This document shows, one piece after another, positions 4,011 through 30,369 of a stretch of 33,848 bases of DNA. The DNA comes from a virus. Lineage: Duplodnaviria; Heunggongvirae; Uroviricota; Caudoviricetes. Under the pieces are notes generated by a model. The model was given only the letters and a program-made list of their open reading frames with translations, made no database searches and was not told the DNA's origin. Both the position numbers and the translations under genes were made by a program. Each line of letters starts with the position of its first letter. The first letter of the stretch is position 1. Location of the stretch: IMG/VR virus record IMGVR_UViG_2925877141_000002; one strand, 5' to 3'.

Positions 4011-4442
4011 ATGATTGATGTCTTAGGGCCGGAGAAACGCAGACGGCGTACCACACAGGAAAAGATCGCAATTGTTCAGCAGAGCTTTGAACCGGGGATG
4101 ACGGTCTCCCTCGTTGCCCGGCAACATGGTGTAGCAGCCAGCCAGTTATTTCTCTGGCGTAAGCAATACCAGGAAGGAAGTCTTACTGCTGTCGCCGCCG
4201 GAGAACAGGTTGTTCCTGCCTCTGAACTTGCTGCCGCCATGAAGCAGATTAAAGAACTCCAGCGCCTGCTCGGCAAGAAAACGATGGAAAATGAACTCCT
4301 CAAAGAAGCCGTTGAATATGGACGGGCAAAAAAGTGGATAGCGCACGCGCCCTTATTGCCCGGGATGGGGAGTAAGCTTAGTCAGCCGTTGTCTCCGGGT
4401 GTCGCGTGCGCAGTTGCACGTCATTCTCAGACGAACCGATGA
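4011..4442 (+). CDS. insC: IS2 OrfA (InsC) variant with altered, extended C-terminus
   Basis: Starts [14 protein letters not shown] with GGAGAACAG RBS; ends ...PGMGSKLSQ... instead of canonical ...PGDGE because of the 1-bp deletion. Confidence 0.8.
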
Positions 4443-5238
4443 CTGGATGGATGGCCGCCGCAGTCGTCACACTGATGATACGGATGTGCTTCTCCGTATA
4501 CACCATGTTATCGGAGAGCTGCCCACGTATGGTTATCGTCGGGTATGGGCGCTGCTTCGCAGACAGGCAGAACTTGATGGTATGCCTGCGATCAATGCCA
4601 AACGTGTTTACCGGATCATGCGCCAGAATGCGCTGTTGCTTGAGCGAAAACCTGCTGTACCGCCATCGAAACGGGCACATACAGGCAGAGTGGCCGTGAA
4701 AGAAAGCAATCAGCGATGGTGCTCTGACGGGTTCGAGTTCTGCTGTGATAACGGAGAGAGACTGCGTGTCACGTTCGCGCTGGACTGCTGTGATCGTGAG
4801 GCACTGCACTGGGCGGTCACTACCGGCGGCTTCAACAGTGAAACAGTACAGGACGTCATGCTGGGAGCGGTGGAACGCCGCTTCGGCAACGATCTTCCGT
4901 CGTCTCCAGTGGAGTGGCTGACGGATAATGGTTCATGCTACCGGGCTAATGAAACACGCCAGTTCGCCCGGATGTTGGGACTTGAACCGAAGAACACGGC
5001 GGTGCGGAGTCCGGAGAGTAACGGAATAGCAGAGAGCTTCGTGAAAACGATAAAGCGTGACTACATCAGTATCATGCCCAAACCAGACGGGTTAACGGCA
5101 GCAAAGAACCTTGCAGAGGCGTTCGAGCATTATAACGAATGGCATCCGCATAGTGCGCTGGGTTATCGCTCGCCACGGGAATATCTGCGGCAGCGGGCTT
5201 GTAATGGGTTAAGTGATAACAGATGTCTGGAAATATAG
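4399..5238 (+). CDS. insD: IS2 OrfB (InsD) transposase body, DDE domain; no longer reachable by -1 frameshift from OrfA
   Basis: 279-aa ORF identical to the distal InsD of copy B; the frame entered by -1 slippage at the A6G site (4328-4334) hits TAA at about 4371. Confidence 0.75.
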
Positions 5239-6086: not shown

Positions 6087-6144
6087 AAAAACGGCGGCAG
6101 AGCAGTCACGGAGTAAAACTGATACCGCCAAACGTCACCAGAAA
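6087..6144 (-). ncRNA. dicF: DicF small RNA with 3' stem-loop and U tract
   Basis: Reverse complement of 6092..6144 reads UUUCUGGUGACGUUUGGCGGUAUCAGUUUUACUCCGUGACUGCUCUGCCGCCG followed by UUUUU; matches DicF as recalled; sits between ydfC-like and dicB. Confidence 0.8.
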
Positions 6145-6403: not shown

Positions 6404-6979
6404 TTAAGGATTCATTAAGCAATGTCGCAACCACCAATAAATCCGCTTAAGAACATGAAAATTGATTACTGGTATAAAGCGCTTACAGTTGTTGGCGCTG
6501 CGTTGTTTGTCTTTAATGGAACGTCTTTTTTTGACAGATATCCCGTTGTTCCATTGGGTTTTTTGTCCTCCGGCATCTTTTTTATTGGTTTGGGGGAGTG
6601 GATTAATCACCCTCTCAAAGTGAGATTTATTGGCCCTGGAGTTTGGACTCGTGGATATAATCGTTCTTCGTGCGCACTCGGTATCATCTTCGACATACTT
6701 GGTTGTTTCCTGATTGTTACAGGAGTCGTCAAGTTCTTCTGATGTAAAACCGCAAATGGGGCACGTAACGGGAATTTTGAAAAGCGTTTCTCCGGGTTCC
6801 AGAACAAAATTTTCTGCGGTCTGATTTTGCTTCTCATATTTGTGCTCCGCGTCATTGTGAGAGCACATTCTTATTCTGAGTGCCTGTTTAAACTCACTGA
6901 AGCTGAGAGCTTCTTCGCCTTCGGCAAGGCCTTCGAAGTATTCTTCGTAAGCCTTTTCCATGATTGTGTCGAAATCCAT
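6404..6979 (-). CDS. YdfB-like protein, extended (191 codons), with CPICGF zinc-ribbon-like motif; distal two thirds may be a shadow ORF
   Basis: Begins MDFDTIMEKAYEEYFEGLAEGEEAL... coupled to the ydfA stop; distal part is K/N/R-rich and exactly antisense to the plus-strand membrane ORF. Confidence 0.4.
   Translation of the reverse strand: MDFDTIMEKAYEEYFEGLAEGEEALSFSEFKQALRIRMCSHNDAEHKYEKQNQTAENFVLEPGETLFKIPVTCPICGFTSEELDDSCNNQETTKYVEDDTECARRTIISTSPNSRANKSHFERVINPLPQTNKKDAGGQKTQWNNGISVKKRRSIKDKQRSANNCKRFIPVINFHVLKRIYWWLRHCLMNP
6422..6742 (+). CDS. Hypothetical small membrane protein (three predicted TM segments), antisense to the dicB operon
   Basis: 106 aa with hydrophobic stretches ALTVVGAALFVF, GFLSSGIFFIGLG, ALGIIFDILGCFLIVTGVV; AAGGA RBS 11 nt upstream of ATG, lying in the 3' arm of a perfect 10-bp hairpin (6383-6392 / 6402-6411). 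Confidence 0.45.
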   Translation: MSQPPINPLKNMKIDYWYKALTVVGAALFVFNGTSFFDRYPVVPLGFLSSGIFFIGLGEWINHPLKVRFIGPGVWTRGYNRSSCALGIIFDILGCFLIVTGVVKFF

Positions 6980-11455: not shown

Positions 11456-11712
11456 ATACAGCGAACTCCATTGGTTTAGTTGGATATTTACTGTGCTGGA
11501 CAAAACGGTTTGCGGGGAAATCTTAGTTAAGTAGAATGACTGCGGGTGCTTGAGGCTATCTGCCTCGGGCACGAACACCAACGGCAGGTAGAGAAAAGCC
11601 CCAGTTAACATTACGCGTCCTGCAAGACGCTTAACATTAATCTGAGGCCAATTTCATGCTAGACACATGTAGGTTAGCCTCTTACGTGCCGAAAGGCAAG
11701 GAGAAGCAGGCT

Positions 11713-11868
11713 ATGAAGCAGCAAAAGGCGATGTTAATCGCCCTGATCGTCATCTGTTTAACCGTCATAGTGACGGCACTGGTAACGAGGAAAGACCTCT
11801 GCGAGGTACGAATCCGAACCGGCCAGACGGAGGTCGCTGTCTTCACAGCTTACGAACCTGAGGAGTAA
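11713..11868 (+). CDS. hokD: Hok-family type I toxin (HokD/RelF-like)
   Basis: 51 aa MKQQKAMLIALIVICLTVIVTALVTRKDLCEVRIRTGQTEVAVFTAYEPEE; AAGGAGAAG RBS; same frame is open upstream to 11656; terminator downstream. Confidence 0.85.
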   Translation: MKQQKAMLIALIVICLTVIVTALVTRKDLCEVRIRTGQTEVAVFTAYEPEE

Positions 11869-15959: not shown

Positions 15960-16166
15960 CTGTATGCGATATCATCTGAAAGTGATGAGTTCCTGTATGC
16001 AGGATATTTACAATCGTAAAAACTACGCTATGATGCTCATAGTGTCAGTTTTTATAAAAATCCTGTTCACGCTAATAGACTGGCCCCCTGAATCTCCAGA
16101 CAACCAATATCACTTAAATAAGTGATAGTCTTAATACTAGTTTTTAGACTAGTCATTGGAGAACAG

Positions 16167-16532
16167 ATGATTGATGTCTTAGGGCCGGAGAAACGCAGAC
16201 GGCGTACCACACAGGAAAAGATCGCAATTGTTCAGCAGAGCTTTGAACCGGGGATGACGGTCTCCCTCGTTGCCCGGCAACATGGTGTAGCAGCCAGCCA
16301 GTTATTTCTCTGGCGTAAGCAATACCAGGAAGGAAGTCTTACTGCTGTCGCCGCCGGAGAACAGGTTGTTCCTGCCTCTGAACTTGCTGCCGCCATGAAG
16401 CAGATTAAAGAACTCCAGCGCCTGCTCGGCAAGAAAACGATGGAAAATGAACTCCTCAAAGAAGCCGTTGAATATGGACGGGCAAAAAAGTGGATAGCGC
16501 ACGCGCCCTTATTGCCCGGGGATGGGGAGTAA
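16167..16532 (+). CDS. insC: IS2 OrfA (InsC)
   Basis: 121 aa [56 protein letters not shown]... Confidence 0.85.
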
Positions 16533-17395
16533 GCTTAGTCAGCCGTTGTCTCCGGGTGTCGCGTGCGCAGTTGCACGTCATTCTCAGACGAACCGATGAC
16601 TGGATGGATGGCCGCCGCAGTCGTCACACTGATGATACGGATGTGCTTCTCCGTATACACCATGTTATCGGAGAGCTGCCCACGTATGGTTATCGTCGGG
16701 TATGGGCGCTGCTTCGCAGACAGGCAGAACTTGATGGTATGCCTGCGATCAATGCCAAACGTGTTTACCGGATCATGCGCCAGAATGCGCTGTTGCTTGA
16801 GCGAAAACCTGCTGTACCGCCATCGAAACGGGCACATACAGGCAGAGTGGCCGTGAAAGAAAGCAATCAGCGATGGTGCTCTGACGGGTTCGAGTTCTGC
16901 TGTGATAACGGAGAGAGACTGCGTGTCACGTTCGCGCTGGACTGCTGTGATCGTGAGGCACTGCACTGGGCGGTCACTACCGGCGGCTTCAACAGTGAAA
17001 CAGTACAGGACGTCATGCTGGGAGCGGTGGAACGCCGCTTCGGCAACGATCTTCCGTCGTCTCCAGTGGAGTGGCTGACGGATAATGGTTCATGCTACCG
17101 GGCTAATGAAACACGCCAGTTCGCCCGGATGTTGGGACTTGAACCGAAGAACACGGCGGTGCGGAGTCCGGAGAGTAACGGAATAGCAGAGAGCTTCGTG
17201 AAAACGATAAAGCGTGACTACATCAGTATCATGCCCAAACCAGACGGGTTAACGGCAGCAAAGAACCTTGCAGAGGCGTTCGAGCATTATAACGAATGGC
17301 ATCCGCATAGTGCGCTGGGTTATCGCTCGCCACGGGAATATCTGCGGCAGCGGGCTTGTAATGGGTTAAGTGATAACAGATGTCTGGAAATATAG
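16490..17395 (+). CDS. insD: IS2 OrfB (InsD), normally expressed as OrfAB by -1 frameshift
   Basis: 301 aa starting [22 protein letters not shown] (GTG immediately after A6G). Confidence 0.85.
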
Positions 17396-17701
17396 GGGCA
17401 AATCCAGCTAAAGAAAACATTGAGATGCAATTTAATGTTGGTAAACATACCAGCCCCAAACGATTTTATTCAATCTGTTTTTATATGAAGATATTTCAAG
17501 TGAATATTGAGAGTATATAATATTATTATTGCACGCAGCTATTATAATATAACAGATTAGTTTAATGATTTGTTTTTTGTGAGTTAAACACATGGTTTTA
17601 TAGTTGTGATGCAATGAGATTTTCCTTATTGTTGAACTGGCGAATATTGATTTTCCACCTATACTTACCTGGTGTAACCCCAATGATATCAGGTGGATAA
17701 T

Positions 17702-19068: not shown

Positions 19069-19365
19069 TTATTCAATGTCTGGTAGCTTATCAAAGATTT
19101 CGGATACTCTTATATTTGTCATATAAGCAAATTGAGATTCTGCCAGCTCTTTGGGTGATTTTCCCGCTTTTTCTGAGCCAAAAATTGTTTCTAAAGCCAG
19201 CATGTTATATTTGAGAACCTCTTCTCGAGTTTTACCTGATAATTTTGCGGTAACAGCAATATAAAAAGGCAACACTTTATCCAGAAGGTCGTTGTGTTTT
19301 GTCAGTTGTGGTAATACCACATCAAGTTGCTTACTGATTGGTTTGAATGGATCTATACCGTTCAT
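19069..19365 (-). CDS. Hypothetical protein, opposite strand, inside the lysis cassette
   Basis: 98 aa, AAGGGA RBS; convergent with the 72-aa ORF. Confidence 0.45.
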   Translation of the reverse strand: MNGIDPFKPISKQLDVVLPQLTKHNDLLDKVLPFYIAVTAKLSGKTREEVLKYNMLALETIFGSEKAGKSPKELAESQFAYMTNIRVSEIFDKLPDIE

Positions 19366-19492
19366 AGTTACATTCCCTTATCAGAGGTAATCAGCCATCC
19401 CCCCTTTATTACACACGCCAGTATCCACCACTGACGGGCTGAGTGCTTAACATATCTAGAGATTAGAAACTGATAAATCCTGATAAATATCC

Positions 19493-20520
<1,028 letters not shown>

Positions 20521-20883
20521 ATTAATATTAAATCGGATTATTTTTAGCGCTGAATGTGAAATTTAAATAAAAAGGACTCTTCCATGAGTCAAAATCCTTG
20601 AAATCTTAAGGGTAAGATAAAAGGTCATTAGACAGAATGACACGTTTTATTAATAAATAAAGCTATTGTTTCATTCGTGTGTTTTTCTTTACAAAAGTAA
20701 TCCTTGCTATGGTTGGTTAATCATGCGTTAATGGTGTTCTGGTTTGTTACAAAATTATCTGAAGCAGTCATTGTTATAATTTTATTATTTGTACCTCTTG
20801 AGATTTCCTTGTTGGTTTTTCTCTCTGATATTTTTTTTCGGACCATTCTGCCCAAGGGCTAACTTCTTCAAAAGGTAATAATG

Positions 20884-21096
20884 ATGTCTAACAAAATGAC
20901 TGGTTTAGTGAAATGGTTTAACCCTGAAAAAGGTTTTGGTTTCATCACGCCGAAAGATGGTAGCAAAGATGTGTTTGTCCATTTCTCAGCTATTCAGAGC
21001 AACGATTTCAAAACGTTAACTGAGAATCAGGAAGTCGAATTTGGTATTGAGAACGGACCTAAAGGCCCCGCGGCTGTTCATGTTGTGGCACTTTGA
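20884..21096 (+). CDS. cspI: CspA-family cold-shock protein (CspI/CspB-like)
   Basis: 70 aa [38 protein letters not shown]...; long A+T-rich leader 20521-20880. Confidence 0.9.
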
Positions 21097-21295
21097 GGTA
21101 GAAAATATTACAAACCATATTCACTTTAGATGCCCGTGTTGCCATGGTTCTCAGTATAGAACATCATCTTTTGATGTTTCTGACAGGAATCCTTTCGGGG
21201 CAAAATGTATCTTTTGTAAATCAATGATGATTACATTTGATAATATTTCACAATACTTAAATGTTAGCCGTCTGTCGTTAGATTTAAGAAAGTGA
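21080..21295 (+). CDS. Small zinc-ribbon protein (CPCCH...CxxC)
   Basis: About 71 aa; only available start overlaps the csp 3' end; terminator follows. Confidence 0.4.
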
Positions 21296-21302
21296 AAATG
21301 AA

Positions 21303-21323
21303 GGCTCCTTCGGGAGCTTTTTT
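21303..21323 (+). terminator. Rho-independent terminator
   Basis: GGCTCC-TTCG-GGAGC followed by TTTTTT. Confidence 0.7.
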
Positions 21324-21367
21324 GCTTAGTGTCTAGTCGATGGATACTCACATATTACGGTAACATT

Positions 21368-21598
21368 ATGAAAAAAATAATAGTTTTTTTTAACTCTGAA
21401 CCAGCAATGGTAGTGCCAGTGATGACCGGAGTTAACACCATCATACGTGAATATCCAAATGGCGAAACAACACACCTCACTGTAATGGCTGCAGGGTTTC
21501 CATCTCTGACCGGAGATCATAAAGTCATTTATGTAGCAGCGGATCGGCATGTAACTTCAGAAGAAATTCTGGAAGCAGCAATGAGACTCTTGAATTGA
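21368..21598 (+). CDS. Hypothetical 76-aa protein (YmcE/YnfN-position, cold-shock cluster)
   Basis: MKKIIVFFNSEPAMVVPVMTGVNTIIREYPNGETTHL...; position only. Confidence 0.4.
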   Translation: MKKIIVFFNSEPAMVVPVMTGVNTIIREYPNGETTHLTVMAAGFPSLTGDHKVIYVAADRHVTSEEILEAAMRLLN

Positions 21599-21770
21599 TT
21601 TGATTCTAATGCATTGATAATAAATGATAATCATCTTTATCTGTTTGTGTGAAATTTAGACCGTCGTATGTTGATTATTGCGATGTTTCATCTTATCTTT
21701 TATACGTTTGCTCCATATAATTGACACTACTGTGTACCAGGAAAGTCATAACAGACTAAAAGAGGAAATG

Positions 21771-21944
21771 ATGAACATTGAAGAGTTAAAAACAAAAACA
21801 GAAGCAGATATTTCTGAATATATAACAAAAAAAATCATTGAGCTTAAGAAAAAGACCGGGAAAGAAGTTACCAGTATCCAGTTTACTGCACGGGAAAAAA
21901 TGACTGGTCTTGAAAGCTATGATATCAAGATTGATTTAATCTAG
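21771..21944 (+). CDS. gnsB: GnsA/GnsB-family protein
   Basis: 57 aa MNIEELKTKTEADISEYITKKIIELKKKTGKEVTSIQFTAREKMTGLESYDIKIDLI; AGAGGA RBS. Confidence 0.7.
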   Translation: MNIEELKTKTEADISEYITKKIIELKKKTGKEVTSIQFTAREKMTGLESYDIKIDLI

Positions 21945-22239
21945 TCTGTTTATAGCATTAGCATCAATTTCTCATCAGATGCTATTCAACAATACAAATT
22001 ACCCATAAACCTCGTTTTTACGGGGTTTTGTTATATTTAAACATTACCGAATAGGTATAAATCTCGATTGTCGATGGTATTGGTTGTGTGACAATACCTA
22101 GTCTTTTCGGTATGCCTGAAGAGAATACAAACGACAGATTATGTAAGGGAAACGCGCTGAATCTTTCACTCTTTCATGCTGAGTGATTTGACGTTATATT
22201 TTTAGCCGTAAGTGAAGAGCAAACGCATGGAGCGACAAA

Positions 22240-22446
22240 ATGCATAAAGATCAATACACTGATGCCCCCTCCCAGGAGCAGGTTCGTGTAAAAACTATGC
22301 TTAATAGCACCATTTCGATGGGTTACCCGGATGTTGTAATTGCATGTATAGAACATCAAGTGTCTCTGGAAGCATTCAGGGCAATTGAGGCCGCGTTAGT
22401 AAAGCACGATAAGAATACGAAGGATTATTCCCTGGTGGTTGACTGA
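22240..22446 (+). CDS. Hypothetical protein
   Basis: 68-aa ORF; no recognisable motifs. Confidence 0.3.
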
Positions 22447-22789
22447 TCACCATAACTGCTAACCATTCTGACCATTTCACAAGTGACAGAGTCAATATCG
22501 TATTCTGTCACTGTCAGGCTAATACAGCAATGCAATTCAACTACAGCAATGCCTCGTATTTAGGTGAATTTACAATATCGTCCAGTTCGGATGCCGGCTG
22601 CATTTCTGAAGATAAGGCATTTCGGTTCTCGTATTTTCCCCTCATGCTCGTCAGTCCTGCGCGTAGTAAGAGACAGGACACTCACACTAATTTGTGTGGG
22701 CATGCTGTGATGTCCTTCTGAATTATCCCCATGCCATTATGTAAAGCTCTGTTACAGATGCTCGTCACGGTTGTCAGGCTGTCGGGTCC

Positions 22790-22812
22790 TCCCAGTGGGG
22801 GGCCCTGCCACG
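22790..22812. other. Candidate cohesive-end site (cosN-like, ACGGGGCGGGAGCGTCGCGG) upstream of the Nu1-like gene
   Basis: Resembles lambda cosN (GGGCGGCGACCT) as recalled, followed by an A+T-rich stretch; correct position relative to the small terminase gene. Confidence 0.45.
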
Positions 22813-22998
22813 GGGCGGGAGCGTCGCGGAAAAAGGCTAGTTTTTGAAATTTTATTCGTCATCACCACTACTGTAATTGATTGATATTACAGTGGTTTTA
22901 TTTTTATGGTGTCGATTCTGATTGTTTTTTGTTCATCGCTAACACCGTTTGCCTAAAGTTGTTCGCAAGATGCATGTTTTAAACATTCTGGAGCGGGT

Positions 22999-23196
22999 AT
23001 GGATCGAGAGTTAAAAAATCTGACGCTGAATATCAGTCAACTGGCGGCATTGTCAGGTGTACATCGCCAGACTGCTGCGGCAAGGCTGCAAAATCTACCC
23101 GTTGCAGGGGGGCATGAAAGCAACCTCAAGCTTTATCGGGTGGTTGATATTGTGTCGGCATTTCTGGCATTACCACCGCCGGTTCCGGACCGGTGA
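22999..23196 (+). pseudogene. Terminase small subunit (Nu1-like) N-terminal fragment, 65 codons
   Basis: N-terminal HTH resembles Nu1 (QLAALSGVHRQTAAARLQNLPVAGGHESNLKLY); full-length Nu1-family proteins are about 180 aa; no terminase large subunit gene follows. Confidence 0.5.
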
Positions 23197-23453
23197 TGCC
23201 GTGGATTGACCCTGTTAAGGAGGCTGAGGCCTGGAAAATTCAGATTCGTGGTGGAGCGGCGACAGAATCAGACTGGGTACGTGCAGGTGGTCGTAATCCG
23301 GATGATGTCAAACGTCGGCGCAAGGCCGAAATTGATGAAAACCGCAAGCTGGATCTGGTATTTGATACCGATCCGGCCAGTGATAAAGGAGGCAGCAGTG
23401 CCGCAACGAAACGACAGGAGCCGCAGCACACCGACGACCAGTCCGAAGAATAA
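23193..23453 (+). pseudogene. Probable C-terminal remnant of a portal protein gene
   Basis: 86-aa charged ORF directly upstream of the head protease gene, where portal normally lies; assignment by position. Confidence 0.35.
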
Positions 23454-23466
23454 TTCCTGGTTCAGG

Positions 23467-25425
23467 ATGCAGGCAGGTCACCAGAGTGACGCGGATATTT
23501 ATATTTATGACGAGATTGGTTTCTGGGGTGTTACAGCGAAGCAGTTTATCAGTGATCTGAATGCACTGGGCGATATCACCCACATTAATCTCCATATTAA
23601 TTCACCGGGTGGCGATGTCTTTGAAGGCATCGCCATTTTTAATGCACTGAAAACACATGGTGCGTCCATTACCGTTTATGTCGACGGTGTGGCGGCGTCA
23701 ATGGCGTCGGTCATTGCGATGGTGGGAAACCCGGTCATTATGCCGGAAAACTCCTTCATGATGATTCATAAACCATTTGGCTTTACGGGCGGTGATGCGG
23801 AGGACATGCGCACCTATGCCGACCTGCTCGATAAAGTTGAGGCGGTTCTGTTACCCGCTTATGCACAGAAAACCGGGAAAACCACCGATGAAATTGCTGC
23901 CATGCTGGCGGATGAGACCTGGATGTCCGGTGCCGAATGTCTGGCACAGGGATTTGCTGATCAGGTGACACCAGCCGTTAAGGCAATGGCATGTATTCAG
24001 TCAAAACGTACAGAGGAATTTAAAAAGATGCCGGAATCCATTCGAAACATGATTACTCCGCCACGCAACAGTGCTCCACGCGTACAGGATGATGAACCTG
24101 CAGCCTCCCGGACGCCAGTGCAGGCAGCAGCACCCGTGGTGGATGAAAACAGTATCCGTGCGCAGGTACTGGCAGAGCAAAAAGCGCGTGTAAACGGTAT
24201 TAATGATCTGTTTGCCATGTTTGGCGGGCGTTATCAGACGCTGCAGGCCCAGTGTCTTGCCGATCCTGAATGTTCGCTGGAGCAGGCCCGTGAAAAGCTG
24301 TTGAACGAGATGGGGCGCGAGTCCACGCCATCCAATAAAAATACCCCGGCTCATATTTATGCCGGTAACGGTAATTTTGTGGGGGACGGGATTCGCCAGG
24401 CGCTGATGGCGCGTGCCGGATTTGAAAAAACCGAACGTGATAATGTCTACAACGGGATGACCCTGCGTGAATATGCCCGTATGTCACTAACTGAACGGGG
24501 TATTGGGGTTTCCGGTTATAACCCGATGCAGATGGTCGGTGCGGCGTTCACACACAGTACGTCTGACTTCGGTAATATTCTGCTGGATGTTGCGAACAAA
24601 GCCATTCTGCAGGGCTGGGAAGATGCCCCTGAAACCTATGAACAGTGGACGCGGAAAGGTCAGTTGTCTGATTTTAAAATTGCCCATCGTGTGGGTATGG
24701 GGGGCTTCAGTGCTCTACGTCAGGTGCGTGAAGGGGCGGAATATAAATACGTCACCACCGGAGATAAACAGGCCACTATTGCACTGGCGACCTATGGCGA
24801 GCTGTTCAGTATCACCCGTCAGGCCATTATCAATGATGATCTGAATATGCTGACCGATGTCCCGATGAAACTGGGCCGTGCGGCGAAATCCACTATTGCC
24901 GATCTGGTTTATGCCATTCTGACGTCTAACCCGAAAATCTCCACAGATAATGTAAGTCTGTTCGATAAAGCGAAACATGCAAACGTACTGGAGAGCGCTG
25001 CAATGGACGTGGCATCGCTGGATAAAGCCCGCCAGTTGATGCGCGTTCAGAAAGAGGGGGAGCGTCATCTGAATATTCGTCCTGCGTTCGTACTGGTACC
25101 GACGGCGATGGAGTCTGTTGCTAACCAGGTCATTCGCTCCTCAAGTGTCAAGGGGGCTGACATTAACGCCGGTATTATTAACCCGGTGAAAGATTTTGCG
25201 ACCGTTATTGCAGAGCCTCGTCTTGATGATAACAGCCAGACCACCTTCTACCTGGCTGCGTCAAAAGGCTCCGATACGATTGAAGTGGCTTATCTCAACG
25301 GTGTGGATACGCCATATATTGATCAGATGGAGGGCTTCAGTGTGGATGGCGTGACAACGAAAGTGCGTATTGACGCCGGTGTCGCGCCAGTTGATCACCG
25401 CGGTCTGGTGAAATGTACGGCGTAA
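23467..25425 (+). CDS. Prohead protease (ClpP-like) fused to scaffold-like linker and HK97-like major capsid protein
   Basis: 652 aa; N-terminal ClpP-like core (IYIYDEIGFWGV...HINLHINSPGGDVFEGIAIFNAL...ASMASVIAMVG), coiled-coil middle, capsid-like C-terminus. Confidence 0.75.
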   Translation: MQAGHQSDADIYIYDEIGFWGVTAKQFISDLNALGDITHINLHINSPGGDVFEGIAIFNALKTHGASITVYVDGVAASMASVIAMVGNPVIMPENSFMMIHKPFGFTGGDAEDMRTYADLLDKVEAVLLPAYAQKTGKTTDEIAAMLADETWMSGAECLAQGFADQVTPAVKAMACIQSKRTEEFKKMPESIRNMITPPRNSAPRVQDDEPAASRTPVQAAAPVVDENSIRAQVLAEQKARVNGINDLFAMFGGRYQTLQAQCLADPECSLEQAREKLLNEMGRESTPSNKNTPAHIYAGNGNFVGDGIRQALMARAGFEKTERDNVYNGMTLREYARMSLTERGIGVSGYNPMQMVGAAFTHSTSDFGNILLDVANKAILQGWEDAPETYEQWTRKGQLSDFKIAHRVGMGGFSALRQVREGAEYKYVTTGDKQATIALATYGELFSITRQAIINDDLNMLTDVPMKLGRAAKSTIADLVYAILTSNPKISTDNVSLFDKAKHANVLESAAMDVASLDKARQLMRVQKEGERHLNIRPAFVLVPTAMESVANQVIRSSSVKGADINAGIINPVKDFATVIAEPRLDDNSQTTFYLAASKGSDTIEVAYLNGVDTPYIDQMEGFSVDGVTTKVRIDAGVAPVDHRGLVKCTA

Positions 25426-25448
25426 ACGTCGCAGACAACAACTCTGAT

Positions 25449-25468
25449 GGCCCGTAAGGGCTTTTTTT
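25449..25468 (+). terminator. Terminator-like hairpin after the capsid gene
   Basis: GGCCC-GTAA-GGGC followed by TTTTTTT; a second hairpin AGCCCC-TGAAC-GGGGCT follows at 25481-25497. Confidence 0.5.
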
Positions 25469-25511
25469 GTACCTGAAATCAGCCCCTGAACGGGGCTGTG
25501 CGGAGACAGTT

Positions 25512-25835
25512 ATGGCAAAGAATTTTGTAGAAGAAGGAAAAACGGTGGCGATTGTTGCCAGTGCAGCCATCAGCAGCGGAGATCTGGTGCAGGTGGGCGA
25601 TGTTTTTGCGGTGGCGCTGACCGATATTCCACAGGGTGAAACAGGCGACGGCATGACCGAAGGTGTGTTTATGCTGCCTAAGCTGAAAACGGATGACATG
25701 AAAACGGGTAAGAAGGTTTATCTGAAGTCCGGAAAAGTTCAGCTGACTAACAGCGGCTCTGATCCGCTGGTCGGGGTTGTCTGGGCAGATGCCGGAACCA
25801 GTGCAGAAGAAGTGCCGGTAAAACTCAATGTCTGA
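25512..25835 (+). CDS. Small phage head protein (possible DUF2190/decoration-like)
   Basis: 107 aa MAKNFVEEGKTVAIVASAAISSGDLVQVGDVFAVAL...; GGAGACAG RBS. Confidence 0.5.
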   Translation: MAKNFVEEGKTVAIVASAAISSGDLVQVGDVFAVALTDIPQGETGDGMTEGVFMLPKLKTDDMKTGKKVYLKSGKVQLTNSGSDPLVGVVWADAGTSAEEVPVKLNV

Positions 25836-26103
25836 TCCCTTTTCCCGGCTGGCAGCGCGTATGGATGCTATCACGGTCAGAAAGATGGGAAAGACAGCCT
25901 CGATTAATGATGTCGATATGACTGTGATCCCGGGAGAAACACTGGCAGAGCTGAATGCTCTGTCCGGACCTGCGGTCTCTCTGGTGGTGTTTTCTTCGGG
26001 ATACCGCCCACGGCGCGGGGATCGCGTTGTTTATGACGGACAACAATGGACGGTCACACGGCATGAACGTTTTAACGGTAAGCCAATGATCTTTATTGAG
26101 TAA
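25828..26103 (+). CDS. Head-tail joining/connector-like protein
   Basis: 91 aa, overlaps the preceding gene by 8 nt; assignment by position and size. Confidence 0.45.
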   Translation: MSDPFSRLAARMDAITVRKMGKTASINDVDMTVIPGETLAELNALSGPAVSLVVFSSGYRPRRGDRVVYDGQQWTVTRHERFNGKPMIFIE

Positions 26104-26114
26104 AGAGGTGTGGG

Positions 26115-26525
26115 ATGAAGGGGCTTGAGAATGCCATCCGTAATCTGAACAGCCTTGATACCCGTATGGTGCCACAGGCCAGCGCATGGGCGATAAACCG
26201 TGTGGCACAGAAAGCGGTCTCGGTCGCCACCCGGCAGGTTGCCGGGAATACCGTTGCGGGAGATAACCAGGTGGCGGGTGTGGCTTACAGCCGTGTGTCG
26301 ACTTTCTCCGGGGATTATCTCCGCGTAACTGACAACAAGGGGAAAACGCACGATGTGCTGACCGGAAGTGATGACGGTCGCCACAGCAACATGTCTCTGG
26401 CGTGGGGGGCTGGCGTGCAGTTTAACCCGACCGAATCCGTGGCCATTGATGTCGCTTATGAAGGCTCCGGCAGTGGCGACTGGCGCACTGACGGTTTCAT
26501 CGTGGGTGTCGGTTATAAGTTCTGA
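26115..26525 (+). CDS. lom: Chimeric ORF: N-terminal about 50 aa of a tail-region gene fused to the C-terminal about 85 aa of Lom outer-membrane protein
   Basis: C-terminus SLAWGAGVQFNPTESVAIDVAYEGSGSGDWRTDGFIVGVGYKF closely matches the lambda Lom C-terminus as recalled; N-terminus MKGLENAIRNLNSLDTRMVPQ... is unrelated and has no signal peptide. Confidence 0.7.
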   Translation: MKGLENAIRNLNSLDTRMVPQASAWAINRVAQKAVSVATRQVAGNTVAGDNQVAGVAYSRVSTFSGDYLRVTDNKGKTHDVLTGSDDGRHSNMSLAWGAGVQFNPTESVAIDVAYEGSGSGDWRTDGFIVGVGYKF

Positions 26526-26579: not shown

Positions 26580-26589
26580 TGGGGTGAAT

Positions 26590-29500
26590 ATGGCAGTAAA
26601 GATTTCAGGTGTACTGAAAGACGGTGCAGGTAAACCGGTACAGAACTGCACAATCCAGCTGAAAGCAAAACGTAACAGCACCACGGTGGTGGCGAACACG
26701 GTGGCCTCAGAAAATCCGGATGAAGCCGGGCGTTACAGCATGGACGTTGAGTACGGTCAGTACAGCGTTATTCTGTTGGTGGAAGGCTTCCCGCCATCGC
26801 ATGCCGGGACCATCACCGTGTATGAAGACTCACAACCGGGTACGCTGAATGATTTTCTCGGTGCCATGACGGAGGATGATGTCCGTCCGGAGGCACTGCG
26901 CCGCTTTGAACTGATGGTGGAAGAGGTGGCGCGTAACGCGTCCGCAGTGGCGCAGAACACAGCAGCCGCGAAGAAGTCAGCCAGCGATGCCAGCACATCA
27001 GCCCGTGAGGCGGCAACCCATGCGACTGATGCTGCAGGCTCAGCACGTGCAGCCAGCACGTCAGCCGGACAGGCCGCTTCGTCGGCTCAGTCAGCGTCTT
27101 CCAGCGCAGGAACGGCATCAGCAAAGGCTACTGAAGCATCAAAAAGTGCTGCCGCTGCAGAGTCTTCAAAAAGCGCGGCAGCCACCAGTGCCGGTGCAGC
27201 GAAAACGTCAGAAACGAATGCCGCAGCATCACAAAAATCTGCGGCCACTTCTGCATCCACCGCGACCACGAAAGCGTCAGAAGCTGCCACCTCAGCCCGG
27301 GATGCGTCGGCTTCAAAAGTGGCGGCAAAATCATCAGAAACGAGCGCAGCCTCGAGCGCCGGCAGTGCAGCTTCCTCGGCAACGGCGGCAGGAAATTCCG
27401 CGAAGGCCGCAAAAACGTCTGAGACGAATGCGGATAACAGCGCACAGGCGGCAGCAGACTCACAAACTGCATCGGCAAATTCCGCGACAGCAGCCAAAAA
27501 ATCAGAAACCAACGCGAAAAATAGTGAGTCAGCAGCAAAGGTCAGCGAAACCAACGCTAAAGCGTCAGAGAACAAGGCGAAAGAATATCTCGACAAGGTC
27601 GGGGGACTCGTCAGCCCGATGACGCAATACGATTGGCCTGTTGTTACTGCTAGTGAGTCTCTTTACATCAAGATCGCGAAACTTTCCGATCCTGGAACCA
27701 GCAGAAGTCATGTAACGCTAATGGTTACTAACGCTGGTAACTACGGCTCCCCTTACGGAAACATTGACTTTATCGAGATCTCGGCGCGCGGTCTGCCTTC
27801 TTTGCTTAGTGCGGATAATGTTTCTCGTCATCTGAGTATACGCCGCTTAGGGTCAACCGGGCTGACCGATAACAACCAGATGCGTTACGGCCTGGTTAAA
27901 GGTGACGGCTTTATTGAGGTTTGGGCATTCCAGGGTGCGTTTATTAACGACGCAAAGGTTGCGGTGCTGGCGCAGACAACACTAAACACAGAATTATACA
28001 TTCCAGACGGATTTGTTAAGCAAACCGCCGCGCCTTCTGGATATATTGAAGGCAACGTTGTAAGGATTTACGACCAGGTAAACAAGCCGACTAAAGCAGA
28101 TTTGGGTCTTTCTAATGCTATGCTTACAGGCGCTTTCGGTCTTGGCGGTAGCGGGATATCAACAAACGGCAAGATGAGCGATGTAGAGATCTTAAAAGCT
28201 CTGCGTGACAAAGGTGGTCATTTCTGGCGCGGTGATAAGCCGACCGGAAGCACGGCGACCATTTATAGCCACGGTTCTGGTATATTCTCGCGGTGCGGCG
28301 ATACGTGGTCAGCGATCAATATCGACTACTCAACCGCGAAGATTAAGATCTATGCCGGCAACGATGCCCGGCTTAACAACGGGACTTTTAGCGTCAATGA
28401 GCTATACGGCTCGGCAAACAAGCCGTCGAAATCGGATGTTGGACTTGGCAACGTAACGAACGATGCGCAGGTAAAAAAAACCGGCGATACAATGACCGGT
28501 GACTTGACAATCAAAAAAGGTACACCGTCAGTCTTCCTGCGGGCAGACAGTGGAGTCACCGCTTTGCGGTTTTATACTGGCGATAACACAGAGCGCGGCA
28601 TAATCTATGCTGGTCCTAACACTGATTCGCTTGGCGAAGTTCGCATCAGGGCAAAGACAGCAGGGGGGACATCAGGAGGGGATCTTGTTGTTCGTCACGA
28701 CGGGAGGGTTGAAGTCCGTGATCTCACAGTAGCGTATAAAATTAAAAGCAGAACGATTGAGATTGCAAATACCGACACTGACTCATCGGCAACTACGCTA
28801 AGCATCTATGGAGTACAGCACACGCCGTTGGTTTTAACGCGTTCTGGTTCTTCTGAAAATGTGTCCATTGGGTTTAAGTTAGACAATGTGAACCCAAAGT
28901 ATCTTGGAATTGATACTAATGGGGATCTGGCTTTTGGTGAGAGTCCTGATCAGAAACAAAACAGCAAATTGATCACGCAAGCGAAACTCGACAAGGGATT
29001 AACGATTGGTGGTCAACTGGCTTTCAAAGGTACGACAGCGTTTTCAGCCGTTGCTACGTTCAGTGCCGGGATAGCAGGAGCCATCGAGCCGGAAAACATT
29101 GACGGCCAGACGGTTAATCTTAACAACCTGACCATCATCAAGTCAGATGCCGGGGCAGTTAAATACTATATTTGTCCATCCTCTGCAGGTGGTGCAAATA
29201 TCACCAACAAGCCTGACGGCGTAACAGGTAACTTTTTGCTCCGTGTTGAATCGACTCGTAAGGTTAGGGATTCAGATTATGCGAACATGCAAACGCTGAT
29301 TAACAGCGACACAAAACGTATATACGTTCGCTTTGTTGTTAATGGAAACTGGACAGCGTGGAGTCAGGTTGTTGTTTCCGGATGGAATCAGGATGTAACC
29401 GTCAGGTCGTTAACCTCGACGACTCCATCAAAATTAGGTGGCGGGCGGATTGATGTGCTTGGAAGTACGTCAGATTATGGCAGCATGAATTGTACCGTTC

Positions 29501-30369
29501 GTGGTGTTGATAGCACTGGAACCAATTCGGCGTGGTCGGTAGGCACATCAGAAAGCACAGGCAAAATGTTGTTCCTGAAAAACCACAGAAGCAGCGCTCA
29601 AGTGCTGTTAAATGGCGATGATGGAGCGGTTCAACTACTAAGTGGCACTGTTAACGGTGCTACAGCGCAGGCGCTAACCATCAACAAAGATGAGGTTAAC
29701 TCAACTGCCGATTTAGTAATTAGAAAACAAACAGGGACTGGCAATCGTTTTGCTTTACTTAATTCAGGTAATTCAGAACTACCAGTTAGTATCAGGGTGT
29801 GGGGTTCCAGTACTCGACAAAACGTTTTTGAGGTTGGCACGTCTGCTGCGTATCTGTTTTATGCGCAAAAAACAACAGACGGGCAAAACCTTACTGTAAA
29901 CGGAAGTGTTAACTGCACCACACTGAATCAGTCATCAGACCGCAGACTGAAAGAAAATATCGAGATTATCGATAACGCGACTGACGCAATCCGCAAAATT
30001 AATGGATACACGTACACGCTCAAGGAGAATGGGGCACATTGCGCCGGGGTTATAGCACAGGAAGTTGAAGAGGCCATCCCGGAGGCCGTTGGTTCATTCA
30101 TCCATTACGGTGAAGAGTTGCAAGGCCCGACCGTTGACGGCAACGAGCTACGCGAAGAAACGCGCTATCTTAATGTTGACTACGCCGCCGTGACGGGTTT
30201 ACTTGTTCAGGTCGCCCGTGAAACAGATGATCGCGTTACCGCGCTGGAAGAGGAAAACACAACGCTACGTCAAAATCTGGCAACAGCAGGCACCCGGATC
30301 AGCACTCTGGAAAATCAGGTAAGCGAACTGGTTGCACTTGTCCGGCAGTTAACAGGAAGCGAACATTGA
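26590..30369 (+). CDS. stf: Side tail fibre protein (lambda Stf-like N-terminus, Ala/Ser-rich repeats, C-terminal S74-type self-cleaving chaperone domain)
   Basis: N-terminus MAVKISGVLKDGAGKPVQNCTIQLKAKRNSTTV... matches lambda Stf as recalled; C-terminal SDRRLKENIEIID...YTYTLKENG...GVIAQEVEE motif typical of the intramolecular chaperone domain. Confidence 0.9.
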   Translation: MAVKISGVLKDGAGKPVQNCTIQLKAKRNSTTVVANTVASENPDEAGRYSMDVEYGQYSVILLVEGFPPSHAGTITVYEDSQPGTLNDFLGAMTEDDVRPEALRRFELMVEEVARNASAVAQNTAAAKKSASDASTSAREAATHATDAAGSARAASTSAGQAASSAQSASSSAGTASAKATEASKSAAAAESSKSAAATSAGAAKTSETNAAASQKSAATSASTATTKASEAATSARDASASKVAAKSSETSAASSAGSAASSATAAGNSAKAAKTSETNADNSAQAAADSQTASANSATAAKKSETNAKNSESAAKVSETNAKASENKAKEYLDKVGGLVSPMTQYDWPVVTASESLYIKIAKLSDPGTSRSHVTLMVTNAGNYGSPYGNIDFIEISARGLPSLLSADNVSRHLSIRRLGSTGLTDNNQMRYGLVKGDGFIEVWAFQGAFINDAKVAVLAQTTLNTELYIPDGFVKQTAAPSGYIEGNVVRIYDQVNKPTKADLGLSNAMLTGAFGLGGSGISTNGKMSDVEILKALRDKGGHFWRGDKPTGSTATIYSHGSGIFSRCGDTWSAINIDYSTAKIKIYAGNDARLNNGTFSVNELYGSANKPSKSDVGLGNVTNDAQVKKTGDTMTGDLTIKKGTPSVFLRADSGVTALRFYTGDNTERGIIYAGPNTDSLGEVRIRAKTAGGTSGGDLVVRHDGRVEVRDLTVAYKIKSRTIEIANTDTDSSATTLSIYGVQHTPLVLTRSGSSENVSIGFKLDNVNPKYLGIDTNGDLAFGESPDQKQNSKLITQAKLDKGLTIGGQLAFKGTTAFSAVATFSAGIAGAIEPENIDGQTVNLNNLTIIKSDAGAVKYYICPSSAGGANITNKPDGVTGNFLLRVESTRKVRDSDYANMQTLINSDTKRIYVRFVVNGNWTAWSQVVVSGWNQDVTVRSLTSTTPSKLGGGRIDVLGSTSDYGSMNCTVRGVDSTGTNSAWSVGTSESTGKMLFLKNHRSSAQVLLNGDDGAVQLLSGTVNGATAQALTINKDEVNSTADLVIRKQTGTGNRFALLNSGNSELPVSIRVWGSSTRQNVFEVGTSAAYLFYAQKTTDGQNLTVNGSVNCTTLNQSSDRRLKENIEIIDNATDAIRKINGYTYTLKENGAHCAGVIAQEVEEAIPEAVGSFIHYGEELQGPTVDGNELREETRYLNVDYAAVTGLLVQVARETDDRVTALEEENTTLRQNLATAGTRISTLENQVSELVALVRQLTGSEH

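Follow-up and report, generated by a model that had tools for sequence, protein, structure and literature searches.

A probable single-deletion scar in the packaging and head operon of a Qin-type Escherichia coli prophage

Prophage context and the cos site

The window (the whole analysed stretch of 33,848 nucleotides) carries a cryptic lambdoid prophage of the Qin type, with ydfJ of E. coli as its insertion site. The assignment is based on the annotation of the identical locus in the genomes EcPNK006 and M23917 and on a comparison with K-12, and the ydfJ insertion is accompanied by the dicB/DicF, hokD/sok, cspI, gnsB and pinQ set (DicF, sok and a cspA-type 5'UTR were detected by Rfam). The element encodes CI/Cro, O-family replication, Q, holin/lysozyme/Rz, capsid and tail-fibre genes; its surviving head genes are the capsid gene, the decoration gene and one further head gene, while tail genes were removed by a second, 11.7-kb deletion.

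Upstream of the head genes, on the plus strand, lies a cosQ-like heptamer (GGGTCCT, 22784-22790); lambda has the identical heptamer, its cosQ, at 48473-48479. In the window the heptamer begins 29 nt before the predicted nick (30 nt in lambda), which falls between 22812 and 22813 and is followed, on the same strand, by the cosN cohesive-end 12-mer GGGCGGGAGCGT (22813-22824). The first 33 positions of the phage cdtI record match 22813-22845 without a mismatch (33/33 nt, 100%), and the end of the phage Tritos record corresponds to 22812. Since these two records begin and end at the 12-mer, we regard cosN as real and intact-looking, with a nicking site predicted by sequence comparison. The first-pass annotation had likewise seen a cosN-like sequence ahead of a 65-codon ORF, in a region starting at 22790, and the 12-mer lies slightly inside that start. 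By comparison with the lambda cohesive end (GGGCGGCGACCT), positions 1-6 are identical and all four differences fall at positions 7, 8, 9 and 11; the CG flanks are conserved, and ACG and CGCGG flanks are common to both. This pattern of conservation matches the one described for cos (PMC4669245), in a study that found no apparent natural variation in cosQ and from which we took the sequence criteria for a lambdoid cos. The site shows the corresponding traits, namely a 12-mer situated at the record ends of related phages and a lambda-like left half, flanks and heptamer. A literature search on the cohesive-end 12-mer and on DUF1441 (see below) returned nothing relevant to this phage group.

The spacer between cosN and the start of the small-terminase gene (22825-22998, plus strand) is, by its position, a putative equivalent of cosB and may thus represent the small-terminase binding region; it contains an 11-nt inverted repeat (22867-22877/22886-22896). 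Overall, the cos region (query 22740-23000) is 90.8-95.0% identical to those of the isolated phages vB_EcoS-569R4, phi458 and mEp460.

Remnants of the small-terminase and portal genes

In the 65-codon ORF that follows (22999-23196, plus strand), 62 native codons (22999-23184) run into three codons read out of frame (P-D-R) and then a TGA stop. Its full-length counterparts are 164 aa long and align with it over their residues 1-62; the ORF also matches Pfam DUF1441 (PF07278) at 41.9 bits (cutoff 35.1) over profile positions 1-48 of 147, and is recognised by PHROG 141 ('terminase small subunit', E=1.3e-19). With 62 of 164 native residues and about a third of the profile it falls well short of a full-length DUF1441 protein, as members of the family measure 160-170 aa (618 homologues). 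When the 65-aa sequence served as query, every homologue retrieved was itself partial or truncated. The alignments identify the ORF as a fragment of a DUF1441 family member; in strain M23917 the same ORF bears the PGAP label 'DUF1441 family protein, incomplete, missing C-terminus'. The order of cos, DUF1441 gene and gpA-type large terminase was confirmed in three intact relatives, whereas the large terminase is deleted in the window. The stub has kept its start codon and a GGAG Shine-Dalgarno sequence.

In the AlphaFold2 model of the full-length protein (pLDDT 79.7), an N-terminal domain made of a strand (9-11), two helices (12-19 and 23-30), a wing, a second strand (45-47) and a third helix (48-56) precedes a linker (57-68), and the break falls within this linker. 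The model suggests that the stub retains a complete predicted N-terminal DNA-binding domain; a single-sequence model of the 65-aa stub alone is poor (pLDDT 64.5) and shows two long helices. We also examined the breakpoints of the truncated DUF1441 fragments present in the databases for clustering at the domain boundary, and found that their homology ends are scattered between residues ~30 and 125 (in a sample biased by the query).

The ORF had initially been described as a piece of Nu1; its small-terminase origin stands, and the family is a different one. Neither the stub nor its full-length relative matches Phage_Nu1 (PF07471), which lambda Nu1 itself does (E=2.5e-100), and BLASTP against lambda Nu1 gave E=20. 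A profile-profile alignment (hhalign) placed residues 9-54 over Nu1 residues 2-49 with E=0.0016 and a probability of only 16%, that is, a weak match. Sequence and profile searches of the PDB with the DUF1441 protein produced nothing meaningful and no link to 1J9I, 6HN7 or 7LW0, and the best Foldseek matches in the PDB were MerR-family proteins, all at E >= 0.09 (none at E <= 0.001). Judged by its profile matches, the small terminase belongs to DUF1441 and not to Phage_Nu1. It is a positional, and probably a functional, analogue of Nu1, so that the term 'Nu1-like' holds for its position and its probable winged-helix fold, not for family membership.

The second remnant, assigned by protein alignment and PHROG, comprises codons 414-502 of a 502-codon portal gene (23184-23453, plus strand). 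Within it, the mechanically called 86-codon ORF (23193-23453, GTG start at 23193) is read in a frame different from that of the 65-codon ORF, and over its last 85 residues it shows no difference from residues 418-502 of the mEp460 and vB_EcoS-569R4 portals. The remnant matches PHROG 537 ('portal protein', E=7.5e-33) over profile positions 151-231 of 233. The Pfam domain Phage_portal_2 (PF05136), which spans residues 35-372 of the intact portal, is entirely deleted, and the retained residues 414-502 give no Pfam match. The alignments mark the ORF as the C-terminal tail of a lambda-family portal, in agreement with the PGAP label ('phage portal protein, incomplete, missing N-terminus') and with what had been proposed from its position. 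The portal-frame ATG/GTG lack an evident Shine-Dalgarno sequence on inspection, and the TGA stop of the stub overlaps the portal-frame ATG (TGATG, 23194-23198); in principle, both peptides could be translated from a late transcript.

The 3' end of the portal gene is overlapped by an intact gene (23398-25425, plus strand) encoding a fusion of a ClpP-like prohead protease and the major capsid protein (Pfam CLP_protease, E=3.4e-36, and Phage_capsid_4, E=8e-55; PHROG 133, 1201 bits; PGAP assignment WP_001136587.1). The head protease thus directly follows the portal tail, as originally noted.

Deletion junction and distribution in E. coli genomes

Alignment to intact phage and prophage alleles (mEp460, vB_EcoS-569R4 and NCTC9967), as the first-pass annotation had proposed, located the junction at 23183-23184, within the interval (23150-23200) in which a deletion had been predicted. 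Here, a left block (22974-23184, equivalent to mEp460 1-210, 98.1% identity, BLAST E 4e-102) and a right block (23183-24000, equivalent to mEp460 4068-4885, 99.4% identity, BLAST E 0) overlap on a 2-bp 'TT' microhomology, with 3,859 bp missing between them; neither match is attributable to chance. The same gap of 3,859 bp is obtained against vB_EcoS-569R4 (6565/10423) and against E. coli NCTC9967 (19885/23743), the closest intact chromosomal allele. The lost DNA comprises small-terminase codons 63-164, the entire gpA-type large terminase, a 70-codon head-tail adaptor gene (W-position) and portal codons 1-413; in intact relatives the segment encodes GpA_ATPase, GpA_nuclease and Phage_portal_2. 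The large terminase and most of the portal are therefore absent, as had been recognised, and so is the adaptor.

The junction was found in two of 5,426 complete E. coli genomes, EcPNK006 (Dallas, USA) and M23917 (Buenos Aires, Argentina), each of which holds the small-terminase and portal DNA in one place, with no second copy. Because these two independent genomes and the window share an identical junction in spite of differing IS2/IS3 insertions, we consider it a real, inherited event. In these two sister genomes RefSeq already marks both stubs as partial pseudogenes. At least 80% of the segment 19300-26100 is held by 332 genomes; besides the two with the deletion, all 28 of 28 among the matches listed show it split into two or three pieces by the extra DNA. 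In LD93-1 and NCTC9967 the span amounts to 10,660 bp (6,801 + 3,859). Some 330 E. coli genomes have this 6.8-kb neighbourhood with exactly 3,859 additional bases that hold the remainder of the small terminase, the large terminase, the adaptor and the portal.

Our reading, to which we assign a probability of about 95% and which nothing in the evidence contradicts, is that a single deletion of 3,859 bp scarred this Qin-type prophage in its late operon, where the packaging and head genes lie. Ancestrally, cosQ-cosN-cosB would have been followed by a DUF1441 small terminase of 164 aa, a gpA-type large terminase of 700 aa, the 70-aa adaptor, a lambda-family portal of 502 aa and the ClpP-protease/capsid fusion, an order that persists in the ~330 genomes and in the isolated phages mEp460 and vB_EcoS-569R4. 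Illegitimate recombination at the TT microhomology would then have fused small-terminase codon 62 to portal codon 413/414, either by slippage or by end joining, as far as the junction sequence tells. The portal frame would have ended up shifted relative to the terminase frame, and therefore the latter meets a stop after three foreign codons, with the portal tail stranded as an orphan ORF.

Alternative readings and functional consequences

Both ORFs open with start codons, as genuine full-length small genes that merely resemble terminase and portal would. The alignments refute such a reading, and we grant it practically no probability: end-to-end matches (95-100% identity) are confined to the first 62 or the last 85 residues of proteins that are far longer, the 65-aa ORF ends in three codons of portal sequence read out of frame, the small-terminase family measures 160-170 aa and the portal 502 aa, and the portal-frame starts have no evident Shine-Dalgarno sequence. 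Equally little credit is due to an assembly artefact, in which the packaging region would have been collapsed or mis-joined. Such errors are a general possibility for any single assembly and nothing specific points to one here, whereas the identical junction recurs in the independently sequenced EcPNK006 and M23917 with differing IS insertions, and the breakpoints share a 2-bp overlap only, with no collapse-prone repeats.

It also seems very unlikely, albeit less so, that the locus is a functional satellite-like device whose intact cos and DNA-binding-only small terminase divert the terminase of an infecting mEp460/cdtI-type helper, or block it, in the manner of the cos and Rpp of E. coli PICIs. 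Consistent with it are an intact-looking cos closely similar to those of active phages, an intact capsid gene, a stub that ends in a predicted linker just past a winged-helix-like domain, and weak Foldseek matches, among which 6hn7_A and 6hlk, both structures of PICI Rpp, stand next to MerR-type winged helices; all of these matches, however, have E >= 0.09. Against it, the flanks share 98-99% DNA identity with ordinary intact modules and the join is out of frame with a 2-bp overlap, as expected of a deletion that occurred recently and by accident and not of an evolved gene; the form is carried by only two of 5,426 complete genomes, and the scattered ends of other DUF1441 fragments give no sign of selection for one form. 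Moreover, a cos-type PICI is a small island that has no lysis or structural genes and carries an Rpp-like gene, whereas this element holds lambdoid CI/Cro, O-type replication, Q and lysis genes, lacks PICI hallmarks and yielded no Rpp homologue. Helper packaging of a passive prophage requires a downstream cos for termination (PMC4669245), and only one cos is present here. At similarly long odds, the scar may have accidentally created, beside an intact cos, a stand-alone small-terminase DNA-binding domain of 62 residues which, if expressed from the late operon, could occupy the cosB of incoming mEp460/cdtI-type phages, either acting as a dominant-negative packaging inhibitor and thereby providing an accidental defence against superinfection, or marking the chromosomal cos for cutting by a helper terminase.

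Under the single-deletion reading, both small ORFs are most probably remnants without a function. As the terminase ATPase/nuclease and the portal are absent, the prophage would be unable to cut its own cos or to package DNA despite its intact-looking cos and capsid gene, and this loss, together with the 11.7-kb tail-gene deletion, would lock the element in the chromosome. With cos and the capsid gene surviving, a related superinfecting phage could in principle recombine with the locus or act on cos. The event is ordinary prophage decay, of little importance beyond annotation; what it offers is an exact record of how one Qin-type prophage lost DNA packaging, with base-exact coordinates for cos, junction and remnants, and a clean case of decay through independent deletions at the level of 2-bp microhomology within a narrow E. 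coli lineage.

Comparison with known packaging modules

The modules of mEp460, cdtI, vB_EcoS-569R4 and NCTC9967 share with the window, in the same order and at 90-99% DNA identity, the cos, the small-terminase N-terminus, the portal C-terminus and the protease/capsid fusion, and differ from it in possessing the 3,859 bp (small-terminase residues 63-164, large terminase, 70-aa adaptor and portal residues 1-413). Lambda resembles the window in its heptamer, in the left half and CG flanks of its 12-nt cohesive end and in a cos placed immediately upstream of the small-terminase gene, and resembles the intact relatives in its gpA-type large terminase and lambda-family portal. It departs from the window in four cohesive-end positions, in the heptamer-nick spacing and in its small terminase, which is a Phage_Nu1 protein, while the DUF1441 protein has no BLASTP similarity to it and only a weak profile match to its winged helix. 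Like the window, the cos and Rpp PICIs of E. coli (PMC6739421, PMC9026076) are chromosomal and combine a cos with a small packaging-related protein in the absence of a large terminase; the window, in contrast, carries a lambdoid prophage in decay that possesses genes for lysis, replication and the capsid, the stub stems from a recent out-of-frame deletion, and nothing indicates an evolved hijacking protein. The Qin prophage of K-12 occupies the same ydfJ site, shares the flanking genes ynfT, ydfK, pinQ, gnsB, ynfN, cspI, rzpQ, rrrQ, hokD, rem and ydfU, and likewise has its packaging region cut down to a small-terminase-type gene. However, in K-12 nohA (189 aa) directly abuts stfQ and all head and tail genes are gone, whereas the prophage described here has a stub of the DUF1441 family, has kept three head genes and suffered its losses through one deletion of 3.9 kb and a separate one of 11.7 kb.

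Extent and nature of the packaging-module deletion

On the + strand, the interval 22780-23470 opens with a GC-rich block resembling cos, followed by 174 bp of AT-rich spacer, two short ORFs (65 codons, 22999-23196; 86 codons in another frame, 23193-23453) and the beginning of a 2-kb ORF (+ strand, ending at 25425) in which a profile search recognized a ClpP-protease/major-capsid fusion, the head protease of the first-pass annotation. By megablast against phage genomes the query 22600-23600 splits at one point, its left part corresponding to the cos and small-terminase region of phage vB_EcoS-569R4 and its right part (~99%) to the boundary between portal and protease genes in phages that include mEp460 and cdtI. 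Pairwise BLAST placed mEp460 1-210 on 22974-23184 (98.1%) and mEp460 4068-4885 on 23183-24000 (99.4%), with matching breakpoints at 6565 and 10423 in vB_EcoS-569R4. Compared base by base, the left homology stops at ...CCGCCGGTT and the right one starts at TTCCGGACCGG, the two blocks overlapping only in 'TT' (23183-23184). Relative to all three references (the two phages and the allele in the E. coli NCTC9967 chromosome) 3,859 bp are absent, which directly shows a deletion, by a single out-of-frame illegitimate recombination at a 2-bp microhomology, where the first-pass annotation had postulated a loss of several kilobases (near 23150-23200). As it had also proposed, the large terminase and most of the portal gene are gone: what intact relatives encode in this segment is residues 63-164 of the small terminase, a large terminase of 700 aa (GpA_ATPase and GpA_nuclease), a 70-aa adaptor-position protein and portal residues 1-413, including the whole Phage_portal_2 domain.

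Profile searches and protein alignments identified both short ORFs as fragments rather than full-length small proteins. The 65-aa product matches Pfam DUF1441 (41.9 bits, cutoff 35.1) only over profile positions 1-48 of 147, as well as PHROG 141 'terminase small subunit', and consists of residues 1-62 of a 164-aa protein followed by P-D-R from out-of-frame portal sequence; 618 detected homologues set the family length at 160-170 aa. The 86-aa product had no Pfam match and aligned with two PHROG portal families at their C-terminal ends (for phrog_537, E=7.5e-33 over positions 151-231 of 233), its last 85 residues being identical to portal residues 418-502. At 23194-23198 (TGATG) the stop codon TGA that ends the small-terminase stub shares bases with an ATG in the portal frame; termination-reinitiation, and hence translation of the 85-aa portal tail, could be conceived, and the overlap itself is a chance product of the deletion.

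The cos site and the identity of the small terminase

The cosN 12-mer GGGCGGGAGCGT (22813-22824) can be aligned with the lambda cohesive end GGGCGGCGACCT, with which it shares positions 1-6 (mismatches at 7, 8, 9 and 11) and the ACG and CGCGG flanks. The heptamer GGGTCCT at 22784-22790, identical to lambda 48473-48479, corresponds to cosQ of lambda. Independent support comes from two record ends: the first 33 nt of the phage cdtI record are identical to 22813-22845, and the last base of the phage Tritos record matches 22812. In lambda-like phages the left half of cos, its CG flanks and cosQ are conserved and the right half varies (Feiss and colleagues, PMC4669245), a pattern to which this cos conforms. 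Since the whole region including the spacer (query 22740-23000) is also 90.8-95.0% identical to isolated phages, the cos site looks intact. An 11-nt inverted repeat (ACTACTGTAAT, 22867-22877; ATTACAGTGGT, 22886-22896; arms 91% complementary, 8-nt loop) lies within the spacer that separates cosN from the small-terminase gene; it is a putative element that may be recognized by terminase or IHF in this DUF1441-type packaging system.

The 65-codon ORF had been called Nu1-like; it is indeed a truncated small terminase, judged by the position of its intact relatives, which have cos on one side and a gpA-type large terminase on the other, and it belongs to DUF1441 rather than to the lambda Nu1 family. 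Whereas lambda Nu1 matches Pfam Phage_Nu1 (E=2.5e-100), the full-length relative of the stub matches DUF1441 as its sole profile and shows no BLASTP similarity to lambda Nu1 (E=20); PDB sequence and profile searches did not reach Nu1 structures. An AlphaFold2 model (60 homologues, pLDDT 79.7) predicts a strand-helix-helix-wing-strand-helix unit at the N-terminus (residues 9-56) and, beyond a linker at 57-68, a helical C-terminal portion. By hhalign, residues 9-54 aligned with residues 2-49 of Nu1, its winged helix (E=0.0016, probability only 16%), and the best Foldseek matches were MerR-family winged helices and PICI Rpp structures (every E >= 0.09), so that a fold-level kinship with Nu1 is suggestive, not conclusive. 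As the breakpoint at residue 62 falls within the predicted linker, the whole putative DNA-binding domain would remain in the stub.

Many further E. coli small terminases of the DUF1441 type are present in databases as truncated fragments (P0001-P0033, partial proteins found with the 65-aa query), in which homology ends at different residues (~30-125). In one of them (P0004), 64 residues of small terminase run into sequence ('LAEQKARV') that apparently belongs to the protease/capsid gene. It seems common for independent deletions to start within the small-terminase gene.

A second deletion in the tail region

Another junction lies at 26272/26273, again with a 2-bp overlap, where 11,702 bp are gone compared with NCTC9967; the loss runs from the gpZ-position gene past J to a point inside lom and takes all tail genes. 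In the resulting chimera (26115-26525), codons 1-53 of the tail gene at the gpZ position continue in frame into the C-terminal portion of Lom. PGAP presents it, misleadingly, as an ordinary, intact gene product, 'Ail/Lom family outer membrane beta-barrel protein' (WP_134778598.1). The side-tail-fibre region (26584-30369) is one continuous ORF of 1,261 codons, which PGAP treats as two features, an N-terminal tail-fibre pseudogene marked 'incomplete' and a tail-fibre-domain protein of 267 aa. Compared with stfR of NCTC9967, identity falls to 94.5% there and the match stops at 27425, which suggests a mosaic or rearranged fibre gene beside the pinQ invertase.

Inheritance of the deletion and standing of the remnants

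The window corresponds (99.98-100%) to the Qin-type prophage that E. coli EcPNK006 (urine, Dallas) carries in ydfJ, and M23917 (urine, Buenos Aires) is 100% identical over 19300-26100. At least 80% of the latter interval is present in 332 genomes, and the contiguous junction in 2 of 5,426 complete genomes, EcPNK006 and M23917 only. Among the matches listed, all 28 non-deleted genomes carry the region in two or three pieces with extra DNA, the closest being NCTC9967 and LD93-1 (99.1%; span 10,660 bp = 6,801 + 3,859). Neither EcPNK006 nor M23917 has a second copy of the small-terminase/portal DNA, which leaves them without a resident helper carrying such a module. An extra IS2 (16076-17408; 1,333 bp, 100% identical to the IS2 interrupting the exonuclease gene further upstream) is absent there in EcPNK006 and M23917, and M23917 carries IS3 elsewhere, in the lipocalin gene. 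This differing IS content indicates that the window derives from a third, closely related strain and that the deletion is inherited and older than these insertions; an assembly artefact as the source of the junction is thereby ruled out.

With the terminase ATPase/nuclease and portal lost, the prophage would be unable to mature or package DNA, and the second deletion would prevent tails from being made either. Most simply, both short ORFs are dead remnants. It is a remote possibility, with no positive evidence behind it, that the small-terminase DNA-binding domain beside an intact cos acts as decoy or hijacker, and several observations speak against it: the flanks of the junction are essentially as in ordinary phages, the deletion-carrying lineage is tiny, and homology of the other database fragments ends at scattered positions. 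Moreover, packaging of a passive prophage by a helper requires a second, downstream cos (PMC4669245).

The first-pass observation is thus confirmed and its interpretation supported, with Nu1 corrected to DUF1441. What it describes is ordinary prophage decay, already visible in public annotation: at exactly these coordinates in EcPNK006 and M23917, PGAP labels the stub 'DUF1441 family protein, incomplete, missing C-terminus'; the portal remnant is labelled 'phage portal protein, incomplete, missing N-terminus'. Rfam models scored above gathering thresholds for three elements typical of Qin cargo: DicF sRNA (6092-6143, - strand), the sok antitoxin RNA of hokD (11544-11718, + strand) and, preceding cspI, a thermoregulator 5'UTR of the cspA type (20726-21142, + strand). 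Qin of K-12 shares the ydfJ site, and its decay is further advanced, with nohA abutting stfQ.
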